Shown: positions 3 through 25,691, counted from the first letter of the stretch. The stretch: DNA of 33,328 nt from Candidatus Woesearchaeota archaeon (GCA_038874655.1 JAVZBY010000010.1:1-33328), one strand, 5' to 3'. Program-made: numbers and translations. Notes: generated from the letters alone by a model not told the origin.

Positions 3-3000
3 TTTGAATGTAATCAAACTGCTTATCTAAAAAATTACATGATTAAAGCTGGTTATGCTACTTTGCTTTTTGAGTTTGAAAATGATTTAGCTTATGTAAG
101 TGATTATGCTTATGATCCTAGTGCTCCTACTCATGATAATCCTTATATTACGCCTGATCCTGCTTATCCTTTTAATAATTTAACTTGCAATGCTAATAAT
201 GTTTTTGATGCTGATGGAGATCAAGTTGTAAATATAACAACTTGGTATAAGAATAATCGAAGTATTTATTTGTTGTATTTGACATTTGCAAATGATAATG
301 AAAGTGTATTGAAAGATTATTCTTTCCATAATTATGATATTGTAAATAATAGTGCAAAATATAATAAAACTATTGGTAGAATAGGTGGTTCATTTTATTT
401 TGATGGAAATTCTTATATTGATTTAGGTCAAAATATTGCTTTAGGTGAAAATTTTACTATAGAATTGTGGTATAAAGGAAGTGAATCTGAATATTATAAA
501 GGTTTAACAGGTGCTGTATCAACAAATGGTTATGCATTACAAATAGATCAAGGATTAGTAAGAGCTTGGATTAATGGGAATCAACATTATGGAACTAGTT
601 ATGTTAATGATAATATATGGCACCACATTGTTTTACAAAGGGAAAATGGACTTGCTAGAATATATGTTGATGGGATACTAGAAAAAGAAGAATTAACAAG
701 TTCAGCTAGTGTTGTTTCTAATCAAAATACTTGGATTGGAGGTTGGGGAAATACTGATTATTTAATTAATGGATTTATAGATGAAATAAGATATTATAAT
801 TACTCTTTATCTAATAATCAAATAAGAAAAAATTTTTTTAGTGAAAATTCATCAAACTATAACAACATATTATTAACTGATGAAATAAAAATTAATGATG
901 AAATAAAGTGTGGTGTAATTCCTAATGATGGTAATGTAAGCGGACTTTTAAAAAATTCTAGCTTTGTCAAAATCAATGAAAATTTAAAACCAAATTTAAC
1001 AAATGTTTATTTACTACCTCAACCTGCTTTTAATGATAGTAATTTAAGTTGTTATGGTCTTATCAACAATATAGAAGGAGATTATATAGTTAATATTACA
1101 AATTGGTATAGGAATAACAAAAGTATTTATTTAGCATATTTTAGTTTTACAAATAATAATGAAAGTTTATTAAAAGATTATTCTTATAATATTAATAGTG
1201 CTTTTAATAATGGTGCTACATACTACAAAGATTTAGGCAAAATTGGTGGTTCATTTTATTTTGATGGAAATTCTTATATTGATTTAGGTCAAAATATTGC
1301 TTTAGGTGAAAATTTTACTATAGAATTGTGGTATAAAGGAACTGATGATCAAGAATATCATGGTTTAACAGGTGCTATATCAACAAATGGTTATGGTATA
1401 CAATTGTATTATGGTTTAGTTAGAGTATGGATTAATGGTAATGTTCATTTAGGAAATATACTAGTTAATGATGATAAATGGCATCACATAGTAGTACAAA
1501 GAGAAAAAGGCCAATTAAAAAGTTATATAGATTCTGTTTTGGATATAAATGAAACTACTGATACAGGCTCTGTTGCATCAAACCAAAATACTTGGATTGG
1601 AGGTTGGGGAAATAATGAATTATTAATTTATGGCCTTATAGATGAAGTTAAATATTATAATTATTCTTTAACATATAACCAAATTAGAAGAAATTTTCTA
1701 AGCGAAAATCAATCATTATATAATAATTTTTTAGATTACAAAGAAACTAATTTAAATGAGGAATGGAAATGTTCTATAACTCCAAATGATGGTTATTTAG
1801 ATGGAATAACTAAAAACAGCTCAAGTGTAAAAATAAAACTTAATAATGTACCAAGAGTTTCAAACCTACAAATTTTACCAATTACCCCTAATACAACATC
1901 AAATTTAAGTTGCTATGCAACTGTTATGGATAACTTTAATTTTACAATTAATGTTGAATATTTTTGGTATAATGGAACTAATTTATTTTCATCAGGAAAT
2001 GTTAGTGTGAATAATAACACAAATACTTTAATATCAACAATTTCTAATTCAAATACAAAAAAGAATGAAATATGGAACTGCACTATTAAAGCTTATGTAG
2101 ATCTTGAAAATTCTATTTTTAGCTTAAATTCTACTAATGTTAAAATAAATAATAATCCCCCTACCAAAATAAGAGATATAGAAAATAGAAATTGGTTAAA
2201 CGATAGTAGTTATTATTTAAATTTAAGTATATATTTCATTGATGAAGATGAAGAAAATTTAAGCTATAATGTAATTAATTCTAATAATTATATTATTTCT
2301 TTTAAAGATAATGTTGCTAATATTACACCTATTAATGGTTTTGTTGGAAGAAATATCATCAATTTCACAGCTAATGATGGTGAAAATATAACTCATTCAA
2401 ACCCTATTATTATAGAAACACACAATGATTTAATAATAAATTCTAATCAAACTTGGAATGCAAGTGATTTCTATAAAGGTATATATTATTTTAGAAATTT
2501 ATATATTATAAATAATAGTACTTTATTTTTAAGAGGGAATTATACTAATAATTCTGATGGTTATGGTGTTGAATTAAATATTAAAGAAAATTTAACCATT
2601 GAAAAAGGGAGTAAAATCTCTGCTGATGAATTAGGTTATCCTGGAGGAAGTATAACTTTAAATGGAATGGGTCCTGGTGCTGGAATTGCAAATGATTGGG
2701 CAACTGGTGTTTCTGGAGCTGGTCATGGTGGATATGGTGGAGGTATAAACCCTGGCTCTGCTTATGATTCTTTAGTTTATCCTATACAATTAGGAAGCGG
2801 TGGTGCTGGTGCTAAAGGGAGTGATGCTAGAATTGGCGGCAATGGTGGTGGTGCTATCATAATAAACAGTAGTCAAATAAAAATAGATGGAATTCTATCT
2901 GCTAATGGTGGCTCAACACCTTGTAATGGTTGTTTGAATCCAGGTGGTGGTGGATCCGGAGGATCTATTTTAATTTTATGCAATAATATCTCTGGAGAGG

Positions 3001-6000
3001 GTAATATAACTACTAATGGTGGTTCTGGAGATATTGGATCTCAAACTAGTTCTGGTGCCGGTGCAGGTGGAAGAATTAGTATTCATTTTAAAAACTTTTC
3101 ATTTGTCGGTGTAATCAGTTCTTTTAATGGAAATAAAGGTAGAACTGCTGAAAATGGTACTATTTATTTGTACGATTATTTAAATAATGATTTATATATA
3201 ATAAGAACGCAGTTATGGCGCACAAATTTAGAAGGAGACTTATTTAATCATAATAATATTTACATTTTGAATAGATCAACATTGTATTTAAAAAGTTATC
3301 ATACTAATGATACAAATGGAATAGGATTTAAATTTTATGTTAAAAACTTTTATTTATTAGATAATGCTTCTATTAATTTAAATGGATTAGGTTATTCTGG
3401 TGGAGATCCGGGATATAATGGTTATGGCCCTGGAAAAGGAATTTCTAATTCTTGGCCTATAGGCGTTTCTGGAGCTGGACATGGTGGTTTAGGAGGTGGT
3501 GTTAATGGTGGCTTTGTATATGATTCATATGATCTACCTTTAGAATTAGGAAGTGGTGGAGCAGGTGGAAAAGGTAGTGGTTCTATGTATGGAGGTAATG
3601 GTGGCGGTGCTATTTTAATTAATGCAACCAATAACATAATAATTAATGGCTCTATTAATGCTGATGGAGGCAATACATATAATACTAATTCTGAAATAGA
3701 TAATCCCGGTGGTGGTGGCTCAGGTGGTTCAATATTATTAATTTGTAATAATTTTTTCAGTAATGGTTTTTTAACAGCCAGAGGAGGAAATGGTGGTTCT
3801 AGTCAAACTACTTCTGGAAATGGTGGTGGAGGAAGAATTTCTGTTATATATCTTAATAATTTTGATTTCAATTTAAATAATAATATAACTACTCCTGGTG
3901 TTGGTGGTTCAGGCGGAGAATCAGGAACTAGTTTTATTTTACATTATTTTTTAGATATTAATTTTAATGTAAGTCATTTAGCACAATTTCCTAATGATAC
4001 AATAATAATATATGGAAAAGCAAATTTAAGTGAAGGAACAAATGTTTCTAATAGAAATTTAATAATAAGACTGAATGAAACTATTTACTATTTAAATACC
4101 TCAAATAACCAATTAACAAAAACAAATACTGGAATATTACCAACTACTAATTTAACAGGTGGATTTTATTATATTTTAGAAACGCCATCTGAAGTTGGAA
4201 GCTATTTATTAAGAATAAACACTAGTGAATTTGGAAAATATGGATATTTAGAGAGAACTAAAAATTTAACTATAAATATAACAAGAAGTTTTGTACCTCA
4301 AATAATTTATCATAATACTTACCCAAATAAAAAATTCTTTGATTCAAATAAAGGTGCTGATTATTATTACATTTATGCTAATGTTAGTGATTATGATAAT
4401 AATGTTGTAAGTGTTAATTTCACTTTAATTGCCCCAAATGGAACTGTTGTTATTGATAATAAAAATGCTTCTGCTTATTCCAATAATCTTTGGAATTCTA
4501 CTTCATTTAAATTAGATCAATATGGACAATGGAATTATACTGTATTTGCTTTAGACAATGACGGAAATAATGATACTAACTATGGGAATATTAGATTTTT
4601 GGAAATAACTGGAAACATACAACCAAGTTATATTTTAATAAATCAAAGTTTTATTTTATACGGTGTAGTTAAGGATAGTTTAAGAAACCCTGTTAGTGAA
4701 AAAGAAATTTTTATTTATGTAAATAATTCTTTGATAAACAAAGATGATTGGTGGAACTCTTCTTGGATATATAGAAAGAAAATATATGTTGAACCAAATG
4801 TCCAAACAAATTTAACTAATACTATTACTTTGGTTAATTTCTCAACTTCTGAATTCATTGCTCAAAATAAAATGAGAAGTGATTGTGGTGATGTTAGATT
4901 TACTGATTCTAATAATAGTGAACTTCAATATACTATGGAAACATCTAGTTGTAATTCTAATAATACTATATTTTGGATTTGGACTAACTTAACTGCCAAT
5001 TCTAATAACACTATATATGCTTATTTCGGCAATCCTAATGCAAATTTCAAAAAAGATTATTTTAATCCAGATAATTCCTTAATAGTTTATTATCACTTTG
5101 ACAATCCTTCTATATATTCTTCAGATATATCAAAAAGTTTTGATTTTAGCAGAAATTACAACGGAAGTTTATATAATGGAGCTTATGTTATTAGTGATGG
5201 AAAATTTGAAAAAGGAGTATATTTAGATGGTGTAGATGACAACTTTGCAACAGATAATATGATTCCTATAACTGGAACAGCAAATAGAACGGTCATGCTA
5301 TGGTTAAAAGTTTTTTCAGACTCTAATGGGGGTATTTTTCAATTAGGTAATAATGGAGCACCTAGCGGTGTTTTCTCATTATTTTTAGAAAACTACAATA
5401 TAAAATATTGGGGACATTTCCAAGACTATACAACTAATGCTTATATTTATCCTGGAAGTTTTACACATTTAGCTATTACCTTTAATGGTAGTAATGTTGT
5501 TATCTATTTAAATGGCACTATTGTAGATAATAGAATTATTAGTGTTATTACTAGGCAAGACATCGCAAGGTTTGGTTATACTACTTTAACAGGATATTTA
5601 CAAACTATTATTGATGAGGTTAGAATATATAATAGATCTTTATCTCAAGATGAAATTTCTACAATTTATAATTCTACAAAAATATTTTATGTGAAAAATG
5701 AAATAATGACTTCTACAAATTTTTCTGGGGAGTATAGTTATATTATTAGTGCACCTTCTAATGTAGGAAAATACTTTATTAAAATAAACACAACTTACAA
5801 TAATTATAATAATGAGTATGGTGAACAAACTTTAGAATTAGATTTAAAGAAAATACCAAAAATTTTATCAAATAATACTTTTCCATTAAAAGTTTATTTT
5901 GACAATAATAATCCTATTAGTATGTATCTACAAGCTAATGTTGAAGATGAAAATCTTTATTCTGTTAATTTCACTTTGATTGCTCCTAACGGAACTGTTG

Positions 6001-9000
6001 TTATTGATAATAAAAATGCTTCTGCTTATTCCAATAATCTTTGGAATTCTACTTCATTTAAATTAGATCAATATGGTCAATGGAATTATTCTGTATTTGC
6101 TTTAGACAATGACGGAAACAATGATACTAGCTATGGAAATATTAGGTTCTTGCAAATAACAGAAACTTTAGAACCTAACTATGTTAATGTTAATCAAACA
6201 GTTGCTGTATTTGGTAATGTGAAAGATACCAACGAAAACTTTATTTCCAATAATTCTATTTATGTTTATTTAAATAATGAAAGTGTTACATGTAAAGATA
6301 CTAATTGGTGGAATTATTCGTTTTATAATGTAAAACAATTCACAATAAGTAATCCTAGTTCCTACACGTTAACAAATGCTCCAGTATATATTAATTTTTC
6401 AACTTTAGATTTAATTTATCAAAATAAGTTAAAAACAAATTGTCAAGATATTAGATTTGTAGATGAAACAAATAATGAGATTGATTACATTTTAGATATT
6501 CCTACATGTAATAGTTCTAAAACTAGCTTTTTATTATGGTTAAATTTATCAGGCAATGAAAATAAAACTTTATATGCTTATTATGGAAATAATGAGGCTT
6601 ATTTAAATAAAAATTATAATATACCAGATAAAAGCTTAATATTATATTATAATTTTGACAATAATACTGTTTATCACTCAAATGCTAATAAGATTTATGA
6701 TTTAAGTAAAAATAATTATAATAGTTCTTTTATAAATGGTGCAACCGTTTCTAGCGAAGGAAAAAATGGATATGCCTTATATTTAGATGGTTATGATGAT
6801 TTCATTCATTCTGATACAACCTTACCATTAGAAGGTAATAAAGAAAGAACTATTATGATGTGGATAAAAACTTTTAATGATGATAGAGGTGGTATTTTTC
6901 AAATTGGTAAAGAATCTTGGCCACATAGTGTATTTACTATTTACCTTAATGGTGGCTATAGAATAGCTTATTGGGGACATTATGTTGATTACAATACAAA
7001 TGCTTATTTATATCCGGGTGGTTGGTCACATCTTGCAGTAACATTTAATCAAACAAATATAAAAATATATATTAACGGTACTTTATCGGATAATAATATT
7101 GTTAGCGTAAATACTTATAATCCCTATTTAAGAATAGGTCATGCAGAGGGTTTAATAAATAATTACTTGAATTGTATGATTGACGAAATATTTATATTTA
7201 ATAGAAGTTTAGAATATCCTGAAATTTTATCCTATTATAACTTAACTAAAATTTATTTTATATCAAACAATACAAATTTAAAAACTAATTCTAGTGGACA
7301 TTATTTATGTAATATTACTTCTCCTTTAATTCCTGGACAATATGTTGTAAAAGTCAACACAACTTACAATGATGAATATGGTGAACAAACTCAAATTTTA
7401 ACTGTAAAGCAATTTCCTAAACTTCTAGAAAATTATACCTCACCTAGAAAAGTTTATTTTGATTCTAATTCTCAACCTTTAAATGTTTCTATTATTGCGA
7501 ATATATCTGATGATAATTTAAAAAGTGTCAATTTCACTTTAATTGCCCCAAATGGAACTGTTGTTATTGATAATAAAAATGCTTCTGCTTATTCTGGTAG
7601 TATTTGGAACTCTACATCATTTAAATTAGATCAATATGGTCAATGGAATTATTCTGTATTTGCTTTAGACAATGACGGAAATAATGACAGTAGCTATGGA
7701 AATATTAGGTTCTTGCAAATATCAGAAACTTTAGAACCTAACTATGTTAATGTTAATCAAACAGTTGCTGTATTTGGTAATGTGAAAAATAGTAGTAGAT
7801 ATAATATAAATGATAAACTTGTATTTATTTACTTAAATAACTCATTATTAACAACATTAGACTGGTGGAATAATAGTTGGTATTATAAAAAAATAATTTT
7901 TATTGAATCAAATGTTCAATCAAATTTAACTAATACTATTACTTTAGTTAATTTCTCAACTTCTGAATTCATTGCTCAAAATAAAATGAGAAGTGATTGC
8001 GGTGATGTTAGATTTACTGATTCTAATAATAATGAACTTCAATATACTATGGAAACTTCTACCTGTAATTCCAGCAACACTATATTTTGGGTTTGGACTA
8101 ACTTAACTGCCAATTCTAATAACACTATATATGCTTATTTCGGCAATCCTAATGCAACTTTAAAAACTGATTACACTAATCCTGATGACTCTCTTGTATT
8201 ATATCTACATTTTGATAACTCTAGTTATTATGGTGAAAATAATTCAAAAATGTTTGATTTCTCTAAAAAAGGTAATAATGGAACATGTATAAATTGTCCT
8301 TCTCTTGCTAAAGGAATTTATGGAAATTATTATGATTTTGATGAGACAAATAAATATATAACTATAAATGCAGACCTAAAAACACAAAATAACAAAGTTA
8401 CTGTTATGGCATGGGTTAATTTAGATTCAACATCTGAAAGTGGTAATTTTATTAAAATAGGTGGCGGAAACAATGGTTTTGGTATTGGCGTTGGACAAAC
8501 TACTACAGAAGACAATGGTAATAATTTGATATTTATATATGAATATGTAAGATGGATAAATACTGGTTATAGTATTGGAACAGGTTGGCATCATGTAGCT
8601 ATGACTATTGATGCTAATGGTATCCCCTCTGCATATATTGATGGAAGATTTAAAAATAGTTTTCCAGGAAACGCACCTATTAGTCCAGATTCAAATATTG
8701 TAATTGGTGGTAATGATATAAGGAATGTAGATGCTGGAATTGATGAAATTAGAGTTTATAATAAAACCTTATCTGAAGATGAAATCTCTGCAATTTATAA
8801 TACTACAAAAAATTATTATATATCAAACGAAACATTTGCACAAACAAACTCATCTGGAGATTATTATTACACTTTCAATGCTCCTTTAATTCCTGGACAA
8901 TATGTTGTAAAAGTCAACGCTACTTACAATGATGAATATGGAGAGCAAAGTAGAATTCTTAATGTTGTTGAAAGTTATAATCCTAAAATTGTCAATATTA

Positions 9001-10007
9001 ATATATCTCCTTTTAATGCAAAAACAAATGATGATTTAATATGTATTGCAACAATTAATTCATTTACAAATATAACTGTTGAATACTATTGGTATAATGG
9101 ATCTAATTTAATTTTCTCTGGTAATAATACTAATGTATTAAATAATGTTCCACAAGTTATTACAACTTTAAATAATGACTATACAAAAAAAGGTGAAAAT
9201 TGGACATGCACAATAAGAGCTTATAATGGAATAGAATATAGTTCATATAATTCAAGTTCTGTTATTATTCAAAACACTCCTCCAAGCACACCAAATTTAA
9301 TAAGTCCGACAAACAATAATAATACTGTTTGGACAAATCCACCTGAGTTTATTTGGAGTTCTTTTGATGAGGATAATGATTTATTAAATTTCACATTAAA
9401 TATTACATCAGAGATATGCCCTGATATTTTAATTGAAAATATAACATCATTTAATTATAATCCTCTTATCTATCTCCCAGAAATAGAATTTGTGTTAAAT
9501 TGCCCTTATAAATGGCAAGTTAGAGTTAGTGATGGAACTAACTATAGTGAGTGGAGTGAAAAATGGAACTTTACAATCGAACCAATTTTAATCTTAACAT
9601 TAATAAATAATAGTATTGATTTTGGGAATTTGAATATAAACGATGTAAAAGATACTGATAATAATGTTAGCCAAATGATTATTAGAAACGATGGAAATCT
9701 TATTGCAAATATAACTTATATCAGTATAAATAATTCATTATGGGAAAGTGTTTCGGACAATACAGAATATTTCCAATTCAAGATAGATAATGTTTCATAT
9801 GAACCAAATTCATTTAATTGGACTTTATCCACAACTAACTGGACAAATCTAACATTTATATTTAATACAAACAAAACAGCTGTTGCTTATTTATTATATC
9901 AAGACAAAAATGATGAAGCTGAAATAGATTACAGAATAAAAGTGCCCCCTGGAGAAAGAGCAGGTGAAAAAAGAACAACAATCCTAATAATCGGAGAGGA
10001 CACATGA
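3..10007 (+). CDS. Giant modular cell-surface/adhesin-like protein (Cys-containing Ig-like repeats, 5 LamG/ConA-like domains, 3 DUF2341-like domains, 2 Gly-rich domains, Fn3-like and C-terminal beta domain); 5' end outside window
   Basis: Frame is open from base 3 (FECNQTAYLKNYM...) and no signal peptide follows Met39, so the true start is upstream. LamG signatures (FDG..YIDLG, FTIELW, WHHIV, IDEIRYYN.SLS); DUF2341-like 'WW..SW.YRK.I...MRSDCGDVRFTD...IYAYFGNP'; Gly-rich 'GAGHGG.GG...P..LGSGG...GG.GGGAI...GGGGSGGSI'; very dense NxS/T sequons; no C-terminal TM helix. Confidence 0.9.
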   Translation, partial: FECNQTAYLKNYMIKAGYATLLFEFENDLAYVSDYAYDPSAPTHDNPYITPDPAYPFNNLTCNANNVFDADGDQVVNITTWYKNNRSIYLLYLTFANDNESVLKDYSFHNYDIVNNSAKYNKTIGRIGGSFYFDGNSYIDLGQNIALGENFTIELWYKGSESEYYKGLTGAVSTNGYALQIDQGLVRAWINGNQHYGTSYVNDNIWHHIVLQRENGLARIYVDGILEKEELTSSASVVSNQNTWIGGWGNTDYLINGFIDEIRYYNYSLSNNQIRKNFFSENSSNYNNILLTDEIKINDEIKCGVIPNDGNVSGLLKNSSFVKINENLKPNLTNVYLLPQPAFNDSNLSCYGLINNIEGDYIVNITNWYRNNKSIYLAYFSFTNNNESLLKDYSYNINSAFNNGATYYKDLGKIGGSFYFDGNSYIDLGQNIALGENFTIELWYKGTDDQEYHGLTGAISTNGYGIQLYYGLVRVWINGNVHLGNILVNDDKWHHIVVQREKGQLKSYIDSVLDINETTDTGSVASNQNTWIGGWGNNELLIYGLIDEVKYYNYSLTYNQIRRNFLSENQSLYNNFLDYKETNLNEEWKCSITPNDGYLDGITKNSSSVKIKLNNVPRVSNLQILPITPNTTSNLSCYATVMDNFNFTINVEYFWYNGTNLFSSGNVSVNNNTNTLISTISNSNTKKNEIWNCTIKAYVDLENSIFSLNSTNVKINNNPPTKIRDIENRNWLNDSSYYLNLSIYFIDEDEENLSYNVINSNNYIISFKDNVANITPINGFVGRNIINFTANDGENITHSNPIIIETHNDLIINSNQTWNASDFYKGIYYFRNLYIINNSTLFLRGNYTNNSDGYGVELNIKENLTIEKGSKISADELGYPGGSITLNGMGPGAGIANDWATGVSGAGHGGYGGGINPGSAYDSLVYPIQLGSGGAGAKGSDARIGGNGGGAIIINSSQIKIDGILSANGGSTPCNGCLNPGGGGSGGSILILCNNISGEGNITTNGGSGDIGSQTSSGAGAGGRISIHFKNFSFVGVISSFNGNKGRTAENGTIYLYDYLNNDLYIIRTQLWRTNLEGDLFNHNNIYILNRSTLYLKSYHTNDTNGIGFKFYVKNFYLLDNASINLNGLGYSGGDPGYNGYGPGKGISNSWPIGVSGAGHGGLGGGVNGGFVYDSYDLPLELGSGGAGGKGSGSMYGGNGGGAILINATNNIIINGSINADGGNTYNTNSEIDNPGGGGSGGSILLICNNFFSNGFLTARGGNGGSSQTTSGNGGGGRISVIYLNNFDFNLNNNITTPGVGGSGGESGTSFILHYFLDINFNVSHLAQFPNDTIIIYGKANLSEGTNVSNRNLIIRLNETIYYLNTSNNQLTKTNTGILPTTNLTGGFYYILETPSEVGSYLLRINTSEFGKYGYLERTKNLTINITRSFVPQIIYHNTYPNKKFFDSNKGADYYYIYANVSDYDNNVVSVNFTLIAPNGTVVIDNKNASAYSNNLWNSTSFKLDQYGQWNYTVFALDNDGNNDTNYGNIRFLEITGNIQPSYILINQSFILYGVVKDSLRNPVSEKEIFIYVNNSLINKDDWWNSSWIYRKKIYVEPNVQTNLTNTITLVNFSTSEFIAQNKMRSDCGDVRFTDSNNSELQYTMETSSCNSNNTIFWIWTNLTANSNNTIYAYFGNPNANFKKDYFNPDNSLIVYYHFDNPSIYSSDISKSFDFSRNYNGSLYNGAYVISDGKFEKGVYLDGVDDNFATDNMIPITGTANRTVMLWLKVFSDSNGGIFQLGNNGAPSGVFSLFLENYNIKYWGHFQDYTTNAYIYPGSFTHLAITFNGSNVVIYLNGTIVDNRIISVITRQDIARFGYTTLTGYLQTIIDEVRIYNRSLSQDEISTIYNSTKIFYVKNEIMTSTNFSGEYSYIISAPSNVGKYFIKINTTYNNYNNEYGEQTLELDLKKIPKILSNNTFPLKVYFDNNNPISMYLQANVEDENLYSVNFTLIAPNGTVVIDNKNASAYSNNLWNSTSFKLDQYGQWNYSVFALDNDGNNDTSYGNIRFLQITETLEPNYVNVNQTVAVFGNVKDTNENFISNNSIYVYLNNESVTCKDTNWWNYSFYNVKQFTISNPSSYTLTNAPVYINFSTLDLIYQNKLKTNCQDIRFVDETNNEIDYILDIPTCNSSKTSFLLWLNLSGNENKTLYAYYGNNEAYLNKNYNIPDKSLILYYNFDNNTVYHSNANKIYDLSKNNYNSSFINGATVSSEGKNGYALYLDGYDDFIHSDTTLPLEGNKERTIMMWIKTFNDDRGGIFQIGKESWPHSVFTIYLNGGYRIAYWGHYVDYNTNAYLYPGGWSHLAVTFNQTNIKIYINGTLSDNNIVSVNTYNPYLRIGHAEGLINNYLNCMIDEIFIFNRSLEYPEILSYYNLTKIYFISNNTNLKTNSSGHYLCNITSPLIPGQYVVKVNTTYNDEYGEQTQILTVKQFPKLLENYTSPRKVYFDSNSQPLNVSIIANISDDNLKSVNFTLIAPNGTVVIDNKNASAYSGSIWNSTSFKLDQYGQWNYSVFALDNDGNNDSSYGNIRFLQISETLEPNYVNVNQTVAVFGNVKNSSRYNINDKLVFIYLNNSLLTTLDWWNNSWYYKKIIFIESNVQSNLTNTITLVNFSTSEFIAQNKMRSDCGDVRFTDSNNNELQYTMETSTCNSSNTIFWVWTNLTANSNNTIYAYFGNPNATLKTDYTNPDDSLVLYLHFDNSSYYGENNSKMFDFSKKGNNGTCINCPSLAKGIYGNYYDFDETNKYITINADLKTQNNKVTVMAWVNLDSTSESGNFIKIGGGNNGFGIGVGQTTTEDNGNNLIFIYEYVRWINTGYSIGTGWHHVAMTIDANGIPSAYIDGRFKNSFPGNAPISPDSNIVIGGNDIRNVDAGIDEIRVYNKTLSEDEISAIYNTTKNYYISNETFAQTNSSGDYYYTFNAPLIPGQYVVKVNATYNDEYGEQSRILNVVESYNPKIVNINISPFNAKTNDDLICIATINSFTNITVEYYWYNGSNLIFSGNNTNVLNNVPQVITTLNNDYTKKGENWTCTIRAYNGIEYSSYNSSSVIIQNTPPSTPNLISPTNNNNTVWTNPPEFIWSSFDEDNDLLNFTLNITSEICPDILIENITSFNYNPLIYLPEIEFVLNCPYKWQVRVSDGTNYSEWSEKWNFTIEPILILTLINNSIDFGNLNINDVKDTDNNVSQMIIRNDGNLIANITYISINNSLWESVSDNTEYFQFKIDNVSYEPNSFNWTLSTTNWTNLTFIFNTNKTAVAYLLYQDKNDEAEIDYRIKVPPGERAGEKRTTILIIGEDT
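384..1341 (+). repeat. Intragenic direct repeat of the Ig+LamG unit (period 861 bp); 384-480 identical to 1245-1341
   Basis: The 97-bp block ggtggttcattttattttgatgg...tataaaggaa occurs twice exactly; the rest of the two units is similar at protein level. Confidence 0.9.
2590..3850 (+). repeat. Two Gly-rich domain repeats (about 2590-3085 and 3370-3850)
   Basis: Protein repeats W..GVSGAGHGG.GGG.N.G..YDS...P..LGSGGAG.KGS....GGNGGGAI...NPGGGGSGGSI...GGRIS. Confidence 0.85.
4412..8945 (+). repeat. Three tandem ~1.55-kb units (Ig-like + Ig-like with inserted DUF2341-like/LamG), containing near-identical nucleotide blocks
   Basis: gaactgttgttattgataataaaaatgcttctgcttatt at 4441, 5992 and 7555 (periods 1551 and 1563 bp); DUF2341-like block ~4808-5045 nearly identical to ~7921-8156; ctcctttaattcctggacaatatgttgtaaaagtcaac at 7321 and 8881. 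Confidence 0.9.
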
Positions 10008-16693: not shown

Positions 16694-16738
16694 CCGAAAG
16701 ATTTATATAGTAGTAATTATATACTACTTATTAGTAGT
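16694..16738 (+). promoter_or_regulatory. Consensus archaeal BRE-TATA promoter with overlapping inverted-repeat operator
   Basis: CCGAAA (16694-16699) + TTTATATA (16702-16709), followed by AGTAGTA-attata-TACTACT-tatt-AGTAGT. Confidence 0.7.
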
Positions 16739-16782
16739 TAAAATAAAAAAATTATAAAAATAAAGAAAAAAAGTGATGAAAA

Positions 16783-16875
16783 ATGAATTTGACTGAATTA
16801 TTAATTAATGAAAAACCTTCAGAAGAAGCAATTAAAAAAGCCAAAGAACTAGAAACTAAAGAATATTATTCATAA
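16783..16875 (+). CDS. Small ORF, 30 aa (MNLTELLINEKPSEEAIKKAKELETKEYYS), not in the ORF track
   Basis: Own consensus promoter, RBS-like GTGAT at 16773-16777, charged helix-like composition, downstream hairpin + T-tract. Confidence 0.55.
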   Translation: MNLTELLINEKPSEEAIKKAKELETKEYYS

Positions 16876-16911
16876 TCATCTTTTTCTAAAATCACCCACC
16901 CCCTCCGTGTT

Positions 16912-16940
16912 GGAGAGCTTAATGCTCTCCTAATTTTTTT
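16912..16940 (+). terminator. Hairpin + T-tract terminator between the small ORF and convergent rfcL
   Basis: GGAGAGC-ttaat-GCTCTCC followed by taa and T7. Confidence 0.6.
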
Positions 16941-16963
16941 AGGTTATTTTTATTCTTAGATGA

Positions 16964-18253
16964 TTATTTCATCAAGTATGCTATTTCTTCATTGTCTAAT
17001 TCTAAAAACTCTGCTAGTTTTTCACCTTTACCTTTTTTAAAGATTAATTTTATGTATGGGAATATTGTTTTTAATGCTTCTTTTGTTGAAGTATGTGTTT
17101 TTAGAGCTATTTTTTCTGCAATTGACTTTTTCTTAGCATTTTTTTGATTATAAATCCACTGATTTAAAATCCTAGAAGTTCTAGTATATTTAGTGAAACC
17201 AGAGTATTTTTCTTTTTTTGATAATGCAATTCCTACTGTAAGCAGATAATTTACATAAACTAAGAAATGCCAGTGTTGCCATCTAATAATTCTGCCTCTA
17301 AATACATCTGCATAACTTAAATTACTATAGGCTTTTGATAAATCTTCTATTTTTATATATTCTTTTGGTAGGTTTTCATCAACCCATAAAAATATTTCAT
17401 CTATATCCTCATCTACTTCTTCTATAGAGTTTAAAGCTATTTCTGGATCACTTGTTTTAAAGATTCTCATCAATGCATTTATCATTGATTCTGTTTGTTT
17501 TCTATCAGAAAGCACATCTAAATCTTGTTTTTTTAATTTTCGTGTATGCTCTGTTAATACTTGTAAATCTGTTATAGCGCCTCTCAAATCTCCACCAGAT
17601 CTTCTTGCAAGAGAAGACAAAACACTTTCTTCATAATCTATTTTTTCTTCATATGCTATTTTTTTTAAAATTGTCAAAATTGAGAGATAATTTAAAGAAT
17701 GAAATTCTATTAATTCTGATTTTTGTCTTAAAGTTGAGAATTTTTGATCAAATATTTCATTTGCAGTCAGTATTATTGGAAATGTGGATTTTTCAATTAA
17801 TTTCATAATTTCTGATAAGCCACCTCTATCTGATGTTCCAGAGATGCCATCTATTTCGTCAATTAGAATTATTTTTTTATTTCCAAATAAAGAAATTTGG
17901 TTTATTGCATTCCCTAACTTTTCTTTTATGGATTCTGCATCTCTAACATCAGAAGCATTTACTTCAATTAGTTCATAATTAAATTCATTTGCTATTGCAT
18001 AAACTGAACTTGTTTTTCCAGAACCAGTTGGCCCATATAATAATGCTGATTTACCTTTTTTAAAATTTTTTATAAAATTGACTAGTTTTTCTAATGCTAA
18101 ATTTTGTCCTTGAATGTCTCTAATTGATTTAGGATAATATTTTATTGTCCAAGGCAAATTCTCTATATTTTTATCATCAGATTTTTTTTTATCAACTTGT
18201 TGTGTTTTATTTTCTGTTTTATATTCTATTGCTTCTGTTTTATATTGATGCAT
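16964..18253 (-). CDS. rfcL: Replication factor C large subunit
   Basis: LPWTIKYYPKS, Walker A GPTGSGKT, IEVNASDVR, Walker B ILIDEID, GDLRGAITDLQ, WVDENLP, LSYADVFRGRI, HTS motif. Confidence 0.93.
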   Translation of the reverse strand: MHQYKTEAIEYKTENKTQQVDKKKSDDKNIENLPWTIKYYPKSIRDIQGQNLALEKLVNFIKNFKKGKSALLYGPTGSGKTSSVYAIANEFNYELIEVNASDVRDAESIKEKLGNAINQISLFGNKKIILIDEIDGISGTSDRGGLSEIMKLIEKSTFPIILTANEIFDQKFSTLRQKSELIEFHSLNYLSILTILKKIAYEEKIDYEESVLSSLARRSGGDLRGAITDLQVLTEHTRKLKKQDLDVLSDRKQTESMINALMRIFKTSDPEIALNSIEEVDEDIDEIFLWVDENLPKEYIKIEDLSKAYSNLSYADVFRGRIIRWQHWHFLVYVNYLLTVGIALSKKEKYSGFTKYTRTSRILNQWIYNQKNAKKKSIAEKIALKTHTSTKEALKTIFPYIKLIFKKGKGEKLAEFLELDNEEIAYLMK

Positions 18254-20092: not shown

Positions 20093-20233
20093 AGAGAAAT
20101 AGAAATTTAATTTTTTAATAAAGTTTTTTAATTTTTGTTTAGATTTTTTTGGAAACATGTTTTATTACAAAAATTTAAAAAATACCATAAATTATAAATA
20201 GGTGAATTTACTTTTAATTTATAGGTGATTTTT

Positions 20234-21562
20234 TTGTCAAAAAAAGAGGAAAAGAAAAATATTAATCGTAGAAATACTAATAATCTTAAAAAAAACAAAA
20301 AAGAGAATTCTAAAATAAAAATATCTAATTTAAAAAATAGTTTTAAAAAAAATATTGAAAGTAAAAAAGATCAAATTAAAAATCAAATTGTATCTAAAAA
20401 AATTAAAGCAAATACTAATATTTTAGAAGAGAAAATTTTAGAAGATAATAAATCAAATGATAAAGATCTTAACCAACAAAATCTTGAAAATAATAATAAT
20501 AATTCTAATTTTGATAATGAAGAAAATGTGGATAGTGGCAAAAATATTAATCTATTAAATAGTCAACAAGATAACTTTAATGAACAAAAACTTAAAGATG
20601 ATATATTATATTATCAAAAAAAGTTTCAAGAATTAAGGTATGAAGTTTCTAAAATTGTTGTCGGGCAAAAAGAAGTTATGGATTATTTGATAGAAGCAAT
20701 TTTGGCTAATGGTCATTGTTTAGTTGAAGGTATTCCAGGAATTGCTAAAACATTGCTTTTAAGAACTTTAGCTGTGGCAATGGGTTGTGAGTTTAAAAGA
20801 ATTCAATTTACACCTGATTTATTACCAAGTGATATTGTAGGTGTAACTGCTTATGATGAAAAAAAAGGTTTTTACACTGTTAAAGGTCCTGTTTTTGCAA
20901 ACATTGTTTTAGGTGATGAAATAAATAGAGCGCCACCAAAAGTTCAATCTGCTTTATTGGAAGCAATGCAAGAAAAACAAGTAACAATTGGAAAAAATTC
21001 TTTTCCATTGCCAAATCCTTTTTTTGTAATGGCAACTCAAAACCCTATAGAACAAATGGGTACTTATCCCTTGCCAGAAGCACAAATTGACAGATTTATT
21101 TATAAAATTATTATGAAATACCCACCAATGGAAGATGAAGAAAAAATATTAAAACAAAATATTAGCTTAAAAAGATTTGAAGACTATAATATTGTTCCTA
21201 TTTTAAAACCTGAGGAAATTGTAAAAGCTCAAGAGGATGTTAAAAAAATATATTCTGATCCAAAAATAGAGAAATATATTGTTAGAATAGTAGATGCTAC
21301 CAGAAATCCACATAAATATAATTTAGAGTTGGGTAAATATATAGAGTTTGGTAGCTCACCAAGAGCAAGCATTTCATTATATATTGCATCTAAAGCCCAT
21401 GCATTATTGAATGGAAAAATTTATGTGACACCACAAGATATTAAAGAAGTTGCGTTAAATATTTTCAGACATAGAATAATTTTAAATTATGAGGGACAAG
21501 CTGAGGATATAAAGACAGAAGATATTATAAAAGAAATCTTAGCTAAAGTGCCTGTTGTTTAA
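20234..21562 (+). CDS. moxR: MoxR-family AAA+ ATPase with long K/N-rich N-terminal extension
   Basis: GHCLVEGIPGIAKT, RIQFTPDLLPSDI.G, DEINRAPPKVQSALLEAMQE, MATQNPIEQ.GTYPLPEAQ.DRF, GSSPRAS. The GTG at 20225 lies within the RBS AGGTGAT, so TTG 20234 is the more likely start. Confidence 0.93.
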   Translation: MSKKEEKKNINRRNTNNLKKNKKENSKIKISNLKNSFKKNIESKKDQIKNQIVSKKIKANTNILEEKILEDNKSNDKDLNQQNLENNNNNSNFDNEENVDSGKNINLLNSQQDNFNEQKLKDDILYYQKKFQELRYEVSKIVVGQKEVMDYLIEAILANGHCLVEGIPGIAKTLLLRTLAVAMGCEFKRIQFTPDLLPSDIVGVTAYDEKKGFYTVKGPVFANIVLGDEINRAPPKVQSALLEAMQEKQVTIGKNSFPLPNPFFVMATQNPIEQMGTYPLPEAQIDRFIYKIIMKYPPMEDEEKILKQNISLKRFEDYNIVPILKPEEIVKAQEDVKKIYSDPKIEKYIVRIVDATRNPHKYNLELGKYIEFGSSPRASISLYIASKAHALLNGKIYVTPQDIKEVALNIFRHRIILNYEGQAEDIKTEDIIKEILAKVPVV

Positions 21563-21642
21563 ATAAAAAGAGAGATTCATAACTTTTTTACTGAATTCAT
21601 ATAAAATTGTTTCTTTATTATTCTACTAAAGAAAATGAATAT

Positions 21643-21669
21643 AAAGGGCAGTTTTACTGCCCTTTTTTT
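21643..21669. terminator. Perfect hairpin flanked by A/T tracts; probable bidirectional terminator
   Basis: AAAGGGCAGT-ttt-ACTGCCCTTT then further T's, lying between convergent genes. Confidence 0.7.
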
Positions 21670-21684
21670 CTTTTAATTTTTTGT

Positions 21685-21870
21685 CATGTGTGATGCGGTG
21701 AGCTGTTAATTAGAAAGGCTCCCTTTTTTTTCTTTGTGTGGGGAGGGGTCTTCAAGAAAAGCTTGGGAGCCTTTGAGCATGAATCCTTAAAGATTGCTAA
21801 TCTTTAAGGTTCTTGGCTCCCCTTTATGAGGGGGTGGGGTCAGAATTAGAAGGGGAGCCATGTTATCATG
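21685..21870 (-). ncRNA. Candidate structured ncRNA / 3'-UTR element with three hairpins, two bearing C-rich apical loops (strand inferred from upstream gene)
   Basis: GC-rich island with no ORF; stems 21714-21723/21765-21774, 21785-21795/21799-21809 and 21814-21824/21850-21860. No resemblance recognised to tRNA, SRP or RNase P. Confidence 0.55.
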
Positions 21871-21873
21871 AGT

Positions 21874-22281
21874 TTATTTTTTGTAATCTAAAGGTGGCTC
21901 TCTTAACTCTTGAAGCCACATTAATCCAATTTTCATCATGTTTTTGTTAAATTTATCTGATAATTTGTAAGTTTTTTTGTAAAGGTCATAATCTATTATT
22001 CCCATGGATTTCATTGGTGTTAAGATTCTATCATAAAATTGTCTTTTGTTATAGGAAATTTTTACTTTTTTACCTCTATATTCAGGTTCATCTAATTCTG
22101 TTATTAATTCACCATCATGTAATTTTGTTGCAAAAATTGACATTTCAGTTTTTCCGATTTCACCATTATTCTCTTTTAAATGCCTAACTAGTAATTTTGC
22201 TACAATAACTTGTTGTTTTGTAGCAAAGATGACTTCATAAATGTCTTCTGGTAAGTTGTATTGGTCAAATAATATAACCAT
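21874..22281 (-). CDS. Hypothetical protein, possible winged-helix-like nucleic-acid-binding fold
   Basis: 135-aa ORF; strong promoter (CGAAA-TA-TTTATATA) about 31 bp before ATG 22281; 'YNKRQFYDRILTPMKSMGIIDYDLYKKTYKLSDKF' resembles a recognition helix plus wing. Confidence 0.7.
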   Translation of the reverse strand: MVILFDQYNLPEDIYEVIFATKQQVIVAKLLVRHLKENNGEIGKTEMSIFATKLHDGELITELDEPEYRGKKVKISYNKRQFYDRILTPMKSMGIIDYDLYKKTYKLSDKFNKNMMKIGLMWLQELREPPLDYKK

Positions 22282-22304: not shown

Positions 22305-22387
22305 TATATAAATATTTCGTTTTTGTAGATTAGTATACGTTTTTGTATATTAAAAAATTAAAACAATTGAAATTAAAACAATTGTTT
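22305..22387 (-). promoter_or_regulatory. BRE-TATA promoter with two sets of direct repeats
   Basis: Minus-strand ACGAAATATTTATATA; CGTTTTTGTA at 22318-22327 and 22338-22347; AAATTAAAACAATTG at 22355-22369 and 22370-22384; palindrome AAACAATTGTTT at 22376-22387. Confidence 0.6.
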
Positions 22388-23596: not shown

Positions 23597-25509
23597 TTAA
23601 TCAAAAAAATCTTTAATTATTTTTTTATAATCTGTAGTAGTTATAATCTCCCAATCCTCAGGAAAACATCTTTTATAATTTTGCCATGCATATCTTTCAT
23701 CTAAAAAGATAATAATACCTTTGTCTGTTTCTGTTCTTATGCATCTACCTGCATTTTGCAAAGTTTTATTAAATGCAGGAAATAAATATCCATAATCCCA
23801 ACCTTTTTTGAATTTTTTTTCAAAATAGTCTATTAAAGATTTTGTTTCTAAATCTGGCTGATTTAAAGGTAATCCTACAATTATAACTGCTTTTAAATAA
23901 TCTCCTGGCAAATCAATTCCCTCGCCAAAACTACCAGAAGCAACTGCTAATAAAACAGCACCTTTATCTTTATAACTTTTAAATTCTTCTAAAAAGTCTT
24001 GTTTTTCTTGTTTTGTCATATTTTGTTTTTCCTTAATTGTTATTTTTATATTATGATCTATTTTTTCATTTATTTGTTCCATAATGAAATAACTTGGAAA
24101 AAATATCGCTATATTCCCTGGAATTATTTCAATTATTTCATTTAATATTTTTGCAATATTTTTATATTGCTCTTGATTTCTGGATTCATATTTTGTTGTT
24201 GTTTTTGGTATTATCAAATTTAAACGATTTTTTTTTGGAAATGGGTCTTTAAAAATTAGTTCATTGCAATTTTCTAATCCTAAAAGCTCTTTATACATAT
24301 ATGTTGGCAATAAAGTTCCAGACATTAAGATTGTTGAATATGTGTTATTGATAATGTCTCTTGAAACAACACTTGGATCTAGACATCTGTAAGATAATTG
24401 TGTATATGTTTCTTGATTATCTAATTCTTTATAGAAATAATTCTAACAAAACCCTCATCTTGGCCTTGCCATATTCTTAAAAAACGAGCAATTGAACCAA
24501 TGTAAGATTGTTTTTGTAATTCTCTAATTGAATCTGCAATAAATTCTAAATCTTCTATTAATTGATCATAATCATACTTCTCCAAAAGAGGTTGCATAAA
24601 TTCATTTTTAGAAACAATTTTTTCTTGATTAATTTGCATTTTTTCTGTTAAATTAGTTAAAGAAGACATAATATCATTTAAAGATTCTATTGTTGAATCA
24701 TAACCAAATCTTTTTGCTTCTTTTATAGCTCTTTTTATAGTTATACTTGATAAATACTCTGAAGCTAAATCCTTTAATCTATAAGGCAAATTATGTGCTT
24801 CATCTACAATAACAATTAATTTTTCTATTTCTCTTCCAATTTTTTGTAAGAAGTTATCTCCTATTTCTGGATTAAATAAATAATAATAATCAGCAATTAT
24901 TACTTTAGCATTTTTTGCAATTCCTAATGATATTTCATAAGGGCACATTAATTCTGTTTTTGAATAATTAATTATTTCTTCTGTTGTTAATGGATTTTTT
25001 GATAGAGTTGATATTAAAGAAGATGCTTTCATAGTAAATTGTGTTTGTGTTTTTCTTGTGTTGATATAAAAATCACACTTTTTTTCTTCTCTCATTTTTT
25101 TGCAAAATGTTATAAAATCTGAGCTATACATTTTATCTGAGCCAGAAATAAGACACATCCATTTTTTTCCAATTATTGAAGAAACTGAAAAATCTAAATT
25201 AAATTTTTCTTTAATTGATTTTAGAGTATCTATTGCAATTTTATGTTGTGTATGCCTAGATGTTAAAAATAAGATAGTCAAATCTTTTTTTAAAGCATAT
25301 GATAAAGCAGGACTTAATGTTGCTACTGTTTTTCCTAATCCTGTTGGAGCATGTATTATTAAATTTTTTTTATATAAAAGCGCATTTTCTACATTCAATA
25401 AAAGTTTATTTTGTTCTTCTCTTATATTCTTATAAGGAAAAAAGAGACGATTTTTTATTATATCTAAATCTTGTAAGCTGTTATTTTCCTCAGAAGAAAT
25501 TTTAGGCAT
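23597..25509 (-). pseudogene. xpd: XPD/Rad3-family Fe-S DNA helicase interrupted by one -1 frameshift at about 24421-24442 (true lesion, recoding or sequence error)
   Basis: N-part: Q motif REEQ, APTGLGKT, four Fe-S Cys (WMC, FC, KCDFY, MCPYE), ADYYYLF, DEAHNL. The -1 frame continues KELDNQETYTQLSYRCLDPS...STILMSGTLLP, FFPSY, GSFGEGID, IVGLP, QNAGRCIR, LDERY. The joined product is about 637 aa. Confidence 0.88.
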
Positions 25510-25691
25510 AATATATTGATTAATTGTTATTTTATAAAGATAATGGATGAAAGACGAAAAAATTGTTTCATAATTTTGGATTATAATTATATTCATTATT
25601 GAAACAAGGTGATTATAATAAAAATAATACTTAAAAGTACACTTTAAATAATAAAAAAAAGTTTATAAAGAATATAAAAAACTTTTATATT

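Follow-up and report, generated by a model that had tools for sequence, protein, structure and literature searches.

What is the GC-rich stretch that follows a small hypothetical gene in the genome of Candidatus Woesearchaeota archaeon, and what might it do? The DNA analyzed, hereafter the window, is a stretch of 33,328 nt (GCA_038874655.1 JAVZBY010000010.1:1-33328) from a genome of 1.26 Mb with 24.5% GC, and between positions 21751 and 21900 its GC content rises to 0.41, versus 0.245 genome-wide. The initial annotation had described an ORF-free GC-rich island with three stems, in which hairpins 1 and 3 follow a single plan on the minus strand, all of which lies where it had been placed; the sole ORF in the element region is a mechanical 45-aa one on the plus strand (21813-21950), and with that exception the island is indeed ORF-free.

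We delimit the element to positions 21712-21872 of the minus strand, a candidate RNA of approximately 160 nt in which two paralogous hairpins with GGCUCCC...GGGAGCC stems and loops rich in C flank an 11-bp hairpin, and a U-tract follows. It had been described as beginning right at the stop codon of the 135-aa gene; the codon occupies 21876-21874 and the conserved 5' flank runs from 21872, so that the element starts 2 nt past the stop. Along the minus strand, the parts of the locus are as follows.

22305..22319, minus strand: promoter as read from the sequence, with TATA box TTTATATA (22312-22305) and a BRE-like CGAAATA upstream
21874..22281, minus strand: gene for the 135-aa protein, an order-specific family with the invariant motif SYNKRQFYDRILTPMK
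21862..21872, minus strand: conserved single-stranded 5' flank CUCAUGAUAAC before hairpin 1, family pattern UCAY-NN-UCAA
21815..21859, minus strand: hairpin 1, stem GGCUCCCC/GGGGAGCC and 29-nt loop UUCUAAUUCUGACCCCACCCCCUCAUAAA; 44.1 bits with covariance model R1; stem covaries
21785..21809, minus strand: middle hairpin CCUUAAAGAUU-AGC-AAUCUUUAAGG, 11 bp, loop AGC, core CUUAAG, from the fold and RNAalifold
21772..21783, minus strand: flank UUCAUGCUCAAA before hairpin 2, paralogous to the hairpin 1 flank; UCAURCUCAA in G013, G018, and G009
21717..21771, minus strand: hairpin 2, outer stem GGCUCCC/GGGAGCC and apical loop GAAGACCCCUCCCCACACA; 51.1 bits with R1
21760-21754 / 21734-21728, minus strand: hairpin 2 inner stem UUUUCUU/AAGAAAA
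21712..21716, minus strand: U-rich tract UUUCU after hairpin 2; U7 in G012, and nearly all relatives are U-rich here
21686..21704, minus strand: genus-level conserved tail AGCUCACCGCAUCACACAU, present in G012 and partly in G013
21646..21669, strand unassigned: hairpin GGGCAG-UUUUA-CUGCCC (21646-21662) followed by T7
20225-21562, plus strand: convergent MoxR-type AAA gene

The loop of hairpin 1 contains a UUCU box and the C-run CCCCACCCCC (21839-21830), and that of hairpin 2 the C-run CCCCUCCCC (21748-21740). The sequence GGGGNGGGG has just two copies in the 1.26 Mb, both strands counted, and both lie inside the element. The 5' flank CUCAUGAUAAC is kept in G012, G013, G018, and G009 whatever the position of the stop codon, and like flanks occur in many other loci. 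The perfect 11-bp hairpin reported between the paralogous ones is present at 21809-21785, as is the terminator-like hairpin reported beyond the element, at 21646-21662 and followed by T7. The UUUCU tract at 21712-21716 is a probable archaeal termination signal; the hairpin with T7 at 21646-21669 is more probably the terminator of the convergent MoxR-type gene and may act as a back-stop terminator for the RNA, too.

None of the known classes of RNA or repeat that we examined accounts for this arrangement. Rfam 15 gave no match at the gathering score across the whole window, and at E ≤ 10 the region 21400-22100 gave 22 matches, none of which came near its gathering score (best, 25.8 bits versus 56) and most of which, including the best one, overlap the terminator-like hairpin. 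ARAGORN found no tRNA or tmRNA gene in the window. Archaeal SRP RNA (RF01857) and RNase P RNA (RF00373) were ruled out, the genome's own copies scoring above cut-off at C3:91721-91994 (171.9 bits) and C1:100659-100963 (157.4 bits), respectively. H/ACA guide sRNAs have an ACA/ANA box directly 3', a K-turn or K-loop in the upper stem, and a two-sided pseudouridylation pocket. On inspection, the 3' flanks here read AAGAA and UUUCU in the window and are U-rich in relatives; an ACA is lacking, as is a conserved GA/AG K-turn, and what is conserved is the sequence of the apical or large loop instead of a pocket. For box C/D sRNAs, we looked for a C box (RUGAUGA) toward the 5' end and a D box (CUGA) toward the 3' end: the 5' flank contains a C-box-like AUGAUAA, but CUGA was found only in G000 and G012, within the loop of hairpin 1, and is absent from G013, G018, and G009. 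A MITE or REP repeat was rejected because the element occupies a single locus in its own genome, both by BLAST and by R1 (next-best R1 score 21 bits), and mostly one locus in relatives. The two C-run sites at C2:52235 and C4:11456 proved to be antisense to the Shine-Dalgarno (SD) regions of protein genes, and a third, at C13:299, lies within GC-rich noncoding sequence that is probably rRNA; the element is not repeated at any of them. Two other GC-rich islands of the window (2701-2850 and 3451-3600) belong to the gene for a 3322-aa protein, in which they encode glycine-rich segments. Among the papers listed by literature searches on DPANN structured RNA and Woesearchaeota noncoding RNA, none described such an RNA in its title or abstract. 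The RNA family is previously undescribed, in agreement with the initial proposal of a structured noncoding RNA or 3'-untranslated region (3'-UTR) that belongs to no known family.

The fold, the covariation of the stems, and the asymmetry between strands all bear on whether the element is an RNA at all. The minus strand of 21680-21885 folds into exactly the three hairpins at -58.4 kcal/mol (z = -7.3), a stability that none of 200 shuffles equaled; the plus-strand fold has z = -3.8. Sixty-six hairpin modules, 64 from the loci of relatives and 2 from the window, were aligned by sequence only using MAFFT. The percentage of paired cells in the 15-pair outer stem, which is biased upward because the modules were chosen for having a stem (the 64 from relatives were picked by a script needing a stem of at least 6 bp around the C-run), was 80.9% versus 68.5% after shuffling, with 0 of 500 shuffles reaching it, and sliding the partner by 1 to 3 columns left 35% to 56% paired. 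Fairer evidence than this percentage is provided by the slid and shuffled controls themselves and by model matches outside the training set. Both-sided changes were counted in 137 cells of the outer stem, and compensatory change was found at all 15 pairs. In G012, G013, G009, and G018, compensatory changes in the stems (for example, GGCACCCUAU/AUAGGGUGCC and GCUUCCCGGG/CCCGGGGAGC) leave the C-runs unchanged. The stem core GCUCCC/GGGAGC is constant in sequence in approximately 60 of the 66 hairpins, which hints at recognition beyond simple pairing.

RNAalifold, applied to 11 two-hairpin relatives (10 distinct sequences), independently predicted the two outer stems and the middle hairpin, with both-sided changes at 8 of 22 pairs overall and at 3 of 8 pairs of the middle hairpin. 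The inner stem of hairpin 2 was absent from this prediction; read directly, the sequences of relatives show both-sided changes there (UAUCUU/AAGAUA, UUCUUA/UAAGAA, UCUUCU/AGAAGA, and GAUU/AAUC). Of the two inner pairings proposed at the outset, TTTTCTT/AAGAAAA is thus kept, and TGA/TCA of hairpin 1 is not conserved in relatives. The loop is almost G-free and its motif, UUCU-N(2-8)-A(A)CC(A)CCC(U)CCCC, is constant in sequence, the columns of the C-run holding C in 45 to 63 of the 66 hairpins, so that an unpaired, conserved C-rich motif is presented. A pseudoknot between a purine-rich 5' flank and the loop sequence UUUCCUC was seen in one close clade only (L095-L112) with little covariation, and we do not claim it.

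Four observations together identify the C-rich strand, that is, the minus strand of the window, as the RNA: G-U pairs exceed A-C pairs on it in the outer stem (63 versus 35), R1 scores the forward orientation above the reverse (51.1 versus 19.1 bits here and 61.1 versus 32.2 bits in G036), the element always shares its strand with the upstream gene, and a U-rich tract follows. The first two of these also argue against a feature acting at the level of DNA, such as an inverted-repeat operator for the winged-helix protein predicted from the adjacent 135-aa gene, a G-quadruplex or i-motif site, or part of a replication origin. Such a feature would be in keeping with the four G-tracts (at least 4 G) of the plus strand, which are the genome's only such tracts, and with the DNA-binding-type fold predicted for the neighboring protein, and palindromic operators, too, can give apparent covariation. 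Against it, the arms lie 29 to 45 bp apart with variable spacing and vary in sequence while the putative recognition helix of the protein is invariant, single-hairpin relatives have two C-tracts only, and no Orc1/Cdc6 gene is adjacent. We consider a DNA-level role very improbable and are close to certain that a genuine structured RNA, conserved in relatives, is encoded here; the covariation check that had been recommended for the stems came out positive, both in the 66-hairpin alignment and with RNAalifold.

The family that emerges is widespread within one order. A DNA search within the taxonomic family recovered the element in 5 of 20 genomes (G012, G013, G009, G018, and its own), and R1, which we built here, matched 106 of 151 genomes of the same order at E ≤ 0.01, each of these 151 genomes being at least 90% complete and one of the matching ones (G150) being flagged as unpublished. 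Matching genomes mostly have one locus with 1 to 3 hairpins. In a phylum-wide sample searched at E ≤ 0.001, 82 of 151 genomes matched, 79 of them within the order, and the 3 matches outside it were weak (≤23.3 bits). Judged by these scans, the RNA family is confined to one Woesearchaeota-type DPANN order. Its unit is a hairpin with the usual outer stem GCUCCC/GGGAGC, preceded by a UCAY..UCAA flank and followed by a U-tract, and the version in the window is a tandem two-unit form with the CUUAAG hairpin in between. A simple pattern, ACCCCTCCCCA, was of little use for tracing the family: it matched 94 of 401 genomes of the order, but among 30 matching loci retrieved just 3 contained the element (L021, L031, and the own locus), the others being coding sequence in higher-GC genomes; its control was uninformative because the pattern reads identically backwards.

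Divergent forms occur directly 3' of the same protein gene in some families of the order that R1 missed (14 loci inspected). In family f47, the polarity of the stem is reversed (CUCUGGGU/ACCCAGAG) around a loop UUCUCUC...CCACUCUCC, and family f114 has a free strand, UUCU...AACCCCCUC...CCCAACCCC, followed by a terminator hairpin. Families f54 (3 loci) and f94 (5 loci) had no adjacent element in any locus inspected.

The window contains a second, related arrangement on the plus strand at approximately 16860-16945, composed of UCAUAAUCAUC, UUUUUCU, and AAAAUCACCCACCCCCUCC, then a terminator hairpin and U7. Before it lies a conserved 30-aa ORF (16782-16874) with a TATA box and an SD of its own, and an 11-nt stretch, CCCACCCCCUC, is common to this arrangement and the loop of hairpin 1. 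The arrangement is kept in G012, and in G013 the motif lies within an enclosing stem; in a DNA search with 16700-16965, only these two genomes gave real matches, most other matches being AT-rich noise. The two loci suggest a small family of candidate RNAs with C-runs resembling the anti-SD at the 3' ends of small genes.

The protein encoded upstream of the element is as lineage-specific as the RNA. It matched no Pfam or NCBIfam family and no entry in a PDB profile search, a distant-relative search and the ESM Atlas gave no family name, and only 81 matches were found among 1.8 billion representative proteins. The family was detected in 207 of 301 sampled genomes of the phylum (a count including G227 and G513, flagged as unpublished), with all matches listed falling in the same order and none in the 10 same-class genomes listed. 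Across the loci aligned, the protein is 69% to 97% identical, with the SYNKRQFYDRILTPMK segment and a basic helix, NKRQFYDRILTPMK, invariant. In its AF2 model (pLDDT 85), a winged helix into which a beta-hairpin is inserted is followed by a helix at the C terminus. VIA gave Z scores of 7 to 8.4 to cullin WHB, Rpa2 WH, and Z-alpha domains, a range that unrelated models also reach, and Foldseek gave weak matches to eS19 and PadR/LmrR (E ≥ 0.057); the winged-helix matches are generic, and the fold therefore gives no function. Identity with a divergent eS19 was rejected, the canonical eS19 being encoded at C13:6472-6885 (173 bits).

Gene and RNA are linked in most loci. In the protein-anchored set, for which 80 loci were kept from 240 relatives in public genomes, the script detected C-runs enclosed by a stem a short way 3' of the gene in 53 loci, and R1 found a same-strand match 3' of the gene in 63, 13 of which had given no hairpin to the model; the search downstream of homologs that the initial annotation had called for thus revealed conservation of the element. 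Conversely, 21 of the 29 best RNA-anchored loci (one supplied by the unpublished G150) have the protein gene directly upstream, at a distance of -14 to 125 nt, and in 4 of 5 examined genomes with gene-less RNA loci the protein gene was found elsewhere. The own genome also encodes a second, SD-led paralog (C1:41381-41788) with no RNA behind it.

This linkage is one ground for the main rival to the reading that we prefer below, namely that the RNA is a specific partner of the 135-aa winged-helix protein, as a ribonucleoprotein (RNP), a decoy or sponge, or an autoregulatory site in the 3'-UTR. The loop motif UUCU...ACCACCCUCCCC would then be the putative binding site, which the covarying stem merely presents. 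Besides the same-strand adjacency in 63/80 and 21/29 loci, the confinement of protein and RNA to the same order, the strong conservation of the protein, its basic helix, and its predicted nucleic-acid-binding-type winged helix favor such a partnership; an invariant protein surface paired with an invariant RNA loop is the pattern of a coevolving RNP, and two tandem sites would fit a dimer. We nevertheless consider it unlikely, although by no means negligible: the winged-helix matches are generic (Z ≤ 8.4) and give no function, the protein often occurs with no detectable RNA adjacent to it (families f94 and f54, the paralog at C1:41381-41788, and 17 of the 80 loci), and the RNA also occurs unlinked or in genomes in which the protein was not found (G204 and G145).

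How the RNA would be produced can be read from its surroundings. The TATA box TTTATATA lies 23 nt before the ATG of the 135-aa gene, for which reason the mRNA is probably leaderless, and transcription of the unit would start at this promoter. In relatives, either the protein gene or the stand-alone RNA is preceded by the same AAC(G)WAAYATTTATATAYTAG motif, which in the own genome also stands before a pilin gene. A specific promoter or operator defining a regulon (GTATAC, 5' of the TATA box) was considered and rejected: the genome has only 6 sites of this kind, the closest twin driving the pilin gene, which marks the promoter as strong but generic. No convincing promoter separates the stop codon from hairpin 1, and the RNA would be cotranscribed as the 3' part of the probably leaderless mRNA for the winged-helix protein. 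We infer transcription and 3'-end formation of the RNA from these features, as we do the trans action and targets considered below. Some copies are organized differently. Five of the 8 RNA-anchored loci lacking the gene (L135, L136, L139, L149, and L153) have a strong archaeal promoter (AACATTTATATAYTAG) approximately 50 to 100 nt upstream of the hairpin, and such stand-alone loci often follow an XPD-like helicase gene and have no upstream ORF. Their promoters imply that the RNA can function on its own, detached from the mRNA of the protein gene, and lend indirect support to its expression as a discrete small RNA.

These stand-alone copies weigh directly on another interpretation, in which the element would work at the 3' end exclusively in cis, the hairpin and U-tract terminating transcription and/or shielding the winged-helix mRNA from 3' exonucleases, with no role in trans. 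Such an element could be expected to sit right behind a stop codon, to have stable GC-rich stems against an AT-rich background, and to close with a U-rich tract, as this one does. However, a terminator or stabilizer could do without an order-wide loop sequence, a constant 5' flank, and units in tandem, archaeal termination is generally regarded as independent of hairpins, and 5 of the 8 gene-less loci pair their own promoter with no upstream ORF. A purely cis-acting role is accordingly quite improbable in our estimation.

The reading that we find best, and hold tentatively as a little less than evenly balanced, is that of a riboregulator, borne in a 3'-UTR or standing alone, whose C-rich loops pair with G-rich SD regions. 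The initial annotation had suggested both anti-SD-like loops and protein-binding sites, and these are still the two most favored interpretations. The unpaired C-rich runs (CCUCC and CCACC), which resemble the 16S anti-SD sequence AUCACCUCC, would serve as seeds, and their pairing with the G-rich SD regions of mRNAs would block translation initiation. SD sequences are used in this genome, in which GGAGG, AGGTG, and GGTGA are approximately 10-fold in excess upstream of starts; the own assembly lacks 16S, and the 16S 3' end of relatives is canonical (GGAUCACCUCCU). The best non-self duplex partners of the loops in silico include several G-rich SD sites 5 to 8 nt before an ATG (for example, GGGAGGGGU, located at C4:11446 and, on the minus strand, at C4:80772 and C11:27036). 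Moreover, conservation follows a seed-like pattern, the UUCU box and C-run being kept while the scaffold varies, from the hairpin loop to the reversed stem of f47 and the free strand in f114 and at 16860-16945. Action in trans is plausible given the copies that have their own promoters and the genomes in which the protein gene is located elsewhere.

Several results temper the anti-SD reading. The genome offers no long target, GGGGNGGGG being found nowhere outside the element, and 9-mers complementary to the loops are no commoner than other G-rich 9-mers. As a class, G-rich 9-mers are approximately 6-fold over-represented in the genome, and base composition therefore accounts in large part for the complementarity between the loops and SD-like sites. 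Of 783 runs of at least 4 G, only 33 occur just upstream of crudely predicted starts, and the loops depart from the anti-SD sequence by extra C residues. A pure base-pairing model also leaves unexplained the order-wide linkage to one invariant protein of nucleic-acid-binding type. The two lines could be combined if the RNA and the 135-aa winged-helix protein formed a new, order-specific RNP whose RNA mimics the 3' end of 16S rRNA, to which the AUCAY in the flank and the CCACC/CCUCC in the loops bear a likeness, and which would titrate SD-led mRNAs or a factor binding the 16S 3' end; we regard this combined model as improbable.

Known regulators offer several comparisons for the preferred anti-SD riboregulator. 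CpxQ is reportedly a bacterial sRNA derived from a 3'-UTR, and the icaR 3'-UTR is said to contain an anti-SD element with a UCCCCUG motif. The RNA described here is like both in being a candidate regulatory RNA at an mRNA 3' end, in having its promoter in common with the upstream gene, and in its C-rich anti-SD-like motif, but differs in that stand-alone copies exist; furthermore, because the upstream mRNA appears leaderless, there is no SD to pair with in cis. CsrB/RsmZ sponges likewise have repeated hairpins that each show the same short single-stranded motif, with a small conserved protein as the possible partner in the present case, whereas the motif here is C-rich instead of GGA, there are only 1 to 3 units, and the candidate partner is a winged-helix protein, not of CsrA type. 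A precedent for the proposed mechanism is given by the staphylococcal RNAs RsaE and RNAIII, whose unpaired UCCC motifs bind SD sequences (PMC2790875). RsaE/RoxS and the hairpin loops of RNAIII have a low-GC genome in common with our element, but the present host is an archaeon, there is no similarity in sequence or model (no Rfam match), the C-runs are 9 to 13 nt long as opposed to UCCC, a single type of protein gene usually stands directly 5' of the RNA, and its pairing with SD sequences is a prediction made in silico. Among archaea, sRNA41 of Methanosarcina mazei acts in trans and is proposed to repress translation by masking ribosome-binding sites (PMC5867862), a second precedent. It differs in belonging to an unrelated lineage, in being intergenic, and in having no link to a winged-helix gene. 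The design of our element is like that of C-rich-loop sRNAs, and what is new is the lineage, the sequence family, and the coupling to a lineage-specific winged-helix protein.

As far as literature searches show, almost no regulatory RNAs have been described in DPANN archaea, and we report an RNA that is order-wide, occupies a single locus, is supported by covariation, and is coupled to an equally lineage-specific, near-universal small protein. The R1 model could seed a new RNA family entry and improve the annotation of Woesearchaeota genomes. Both the RNA of approximately 160 nt and the 135-aa protein can be made in vitro, which offers a cheap test system that could serve the study of posttranscriptional control in organisms not yet culturable alone, and could show how initiation is controlled in archaea whose mRNAs are partly leaderless and partly SD-led. 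If the combined model of a 16S-mimicking RNP were true, the complex would constitute a global switch between SD-led and leaderless translation in archaea with reduced genomes.

The C-rich RNA, the conserved two-hairpin element 3' of the winged-helix gene, tolerates about 120 nt of additional spacing between its two hairpin units, because the closest relative (genome G012, locus L003, positions 1600-1690) has an inserted tandem repeat of ATAAAATTAAG units that separates the middle hairpin from hairpin 2. The RNA may also extend beyond its U-tract into a 3' tail, which is kept in G012 and, in part, in G013, another relative.

Window 21686-21704, minus strand: AGCUCACCGCAUCACACAU tail, after the U-tract and ahead of the terminator hairpin.

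C-runs recur elsewhere in the window.

Window 16700-16945, plus strand: second C-run-bearing element.

In its 5' part, this element has a conserved 30-aa ORF (16782-16874) with its own TATA box and SD, followed on the 3' side by UCAUAAUCAUC-UUUUUCU-AAAAUCACCCACCCCCUCC, a terminator hairpin (GGAGAGC/GCUCUCC), and U7, in that order. The element has 11 nt in common with the loop of hairpin 1 and is kept in G012; the G013 copy is enclosed by a stem. If the element were read from the minus strand, no other site in the genome would be a better antisense partner for hairpin 1 (-26.9 kcal/mol).

Near-identical strong promoters drive the winged-helix gene and, on contig C1 of the same genome (G000), a type IV pilin-like gene, which has a strong SD, GGGAAAGAGGUGAU, in its 5' UTR. 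The promoter motif GGGAAAAAGAGGUG was again found 3' of the RNA in several relatives (loci L057-L059, L094, L100, L109, and L116).

Window 22305-22345, minus strand, and G000:C1:~187385, minus strand: strong promoter of the ACAAAAGCGTAATATTTATATATTAG type, with GTATAC upstream.

In many genomes of the order, the winged-helix protein is encoded twice. Here, the second gene is flanked by a ThrRS-like gene and an SRP54 gene and has an SD-led 5' UTR (GGGGGU); no C-rich RNA follows it.

G000:C1:41381-41788, plus strand, outside the window: second winged-helix paralogue, 138 aa.

Two further features of the window were noticed.

Window 39-10007, plus strand: giant 3322-aa ORF.
Window 23597-25596, minus strand: XPD/Rad3-like helicase.

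The giant ORF combines repeated Gly-rich segments with LamG/ConA-like repeats, and its Gly-rich stretches explain the other GC-rich islands (2701-2850 and 3451-3600). The helicase appears to be broken into a pair of ORFs, one at 24421-25596 and the other at 23597-24325, which lie upstream of both a radical-SAM gene and the winged-helix gene. In relatives (loci L135, L139, L149, and L151), an intact XPD-like gene directly precedes a stand-alone RNA, that is, a copy of the C-rich RNA without an adjacent winged-helix gene.
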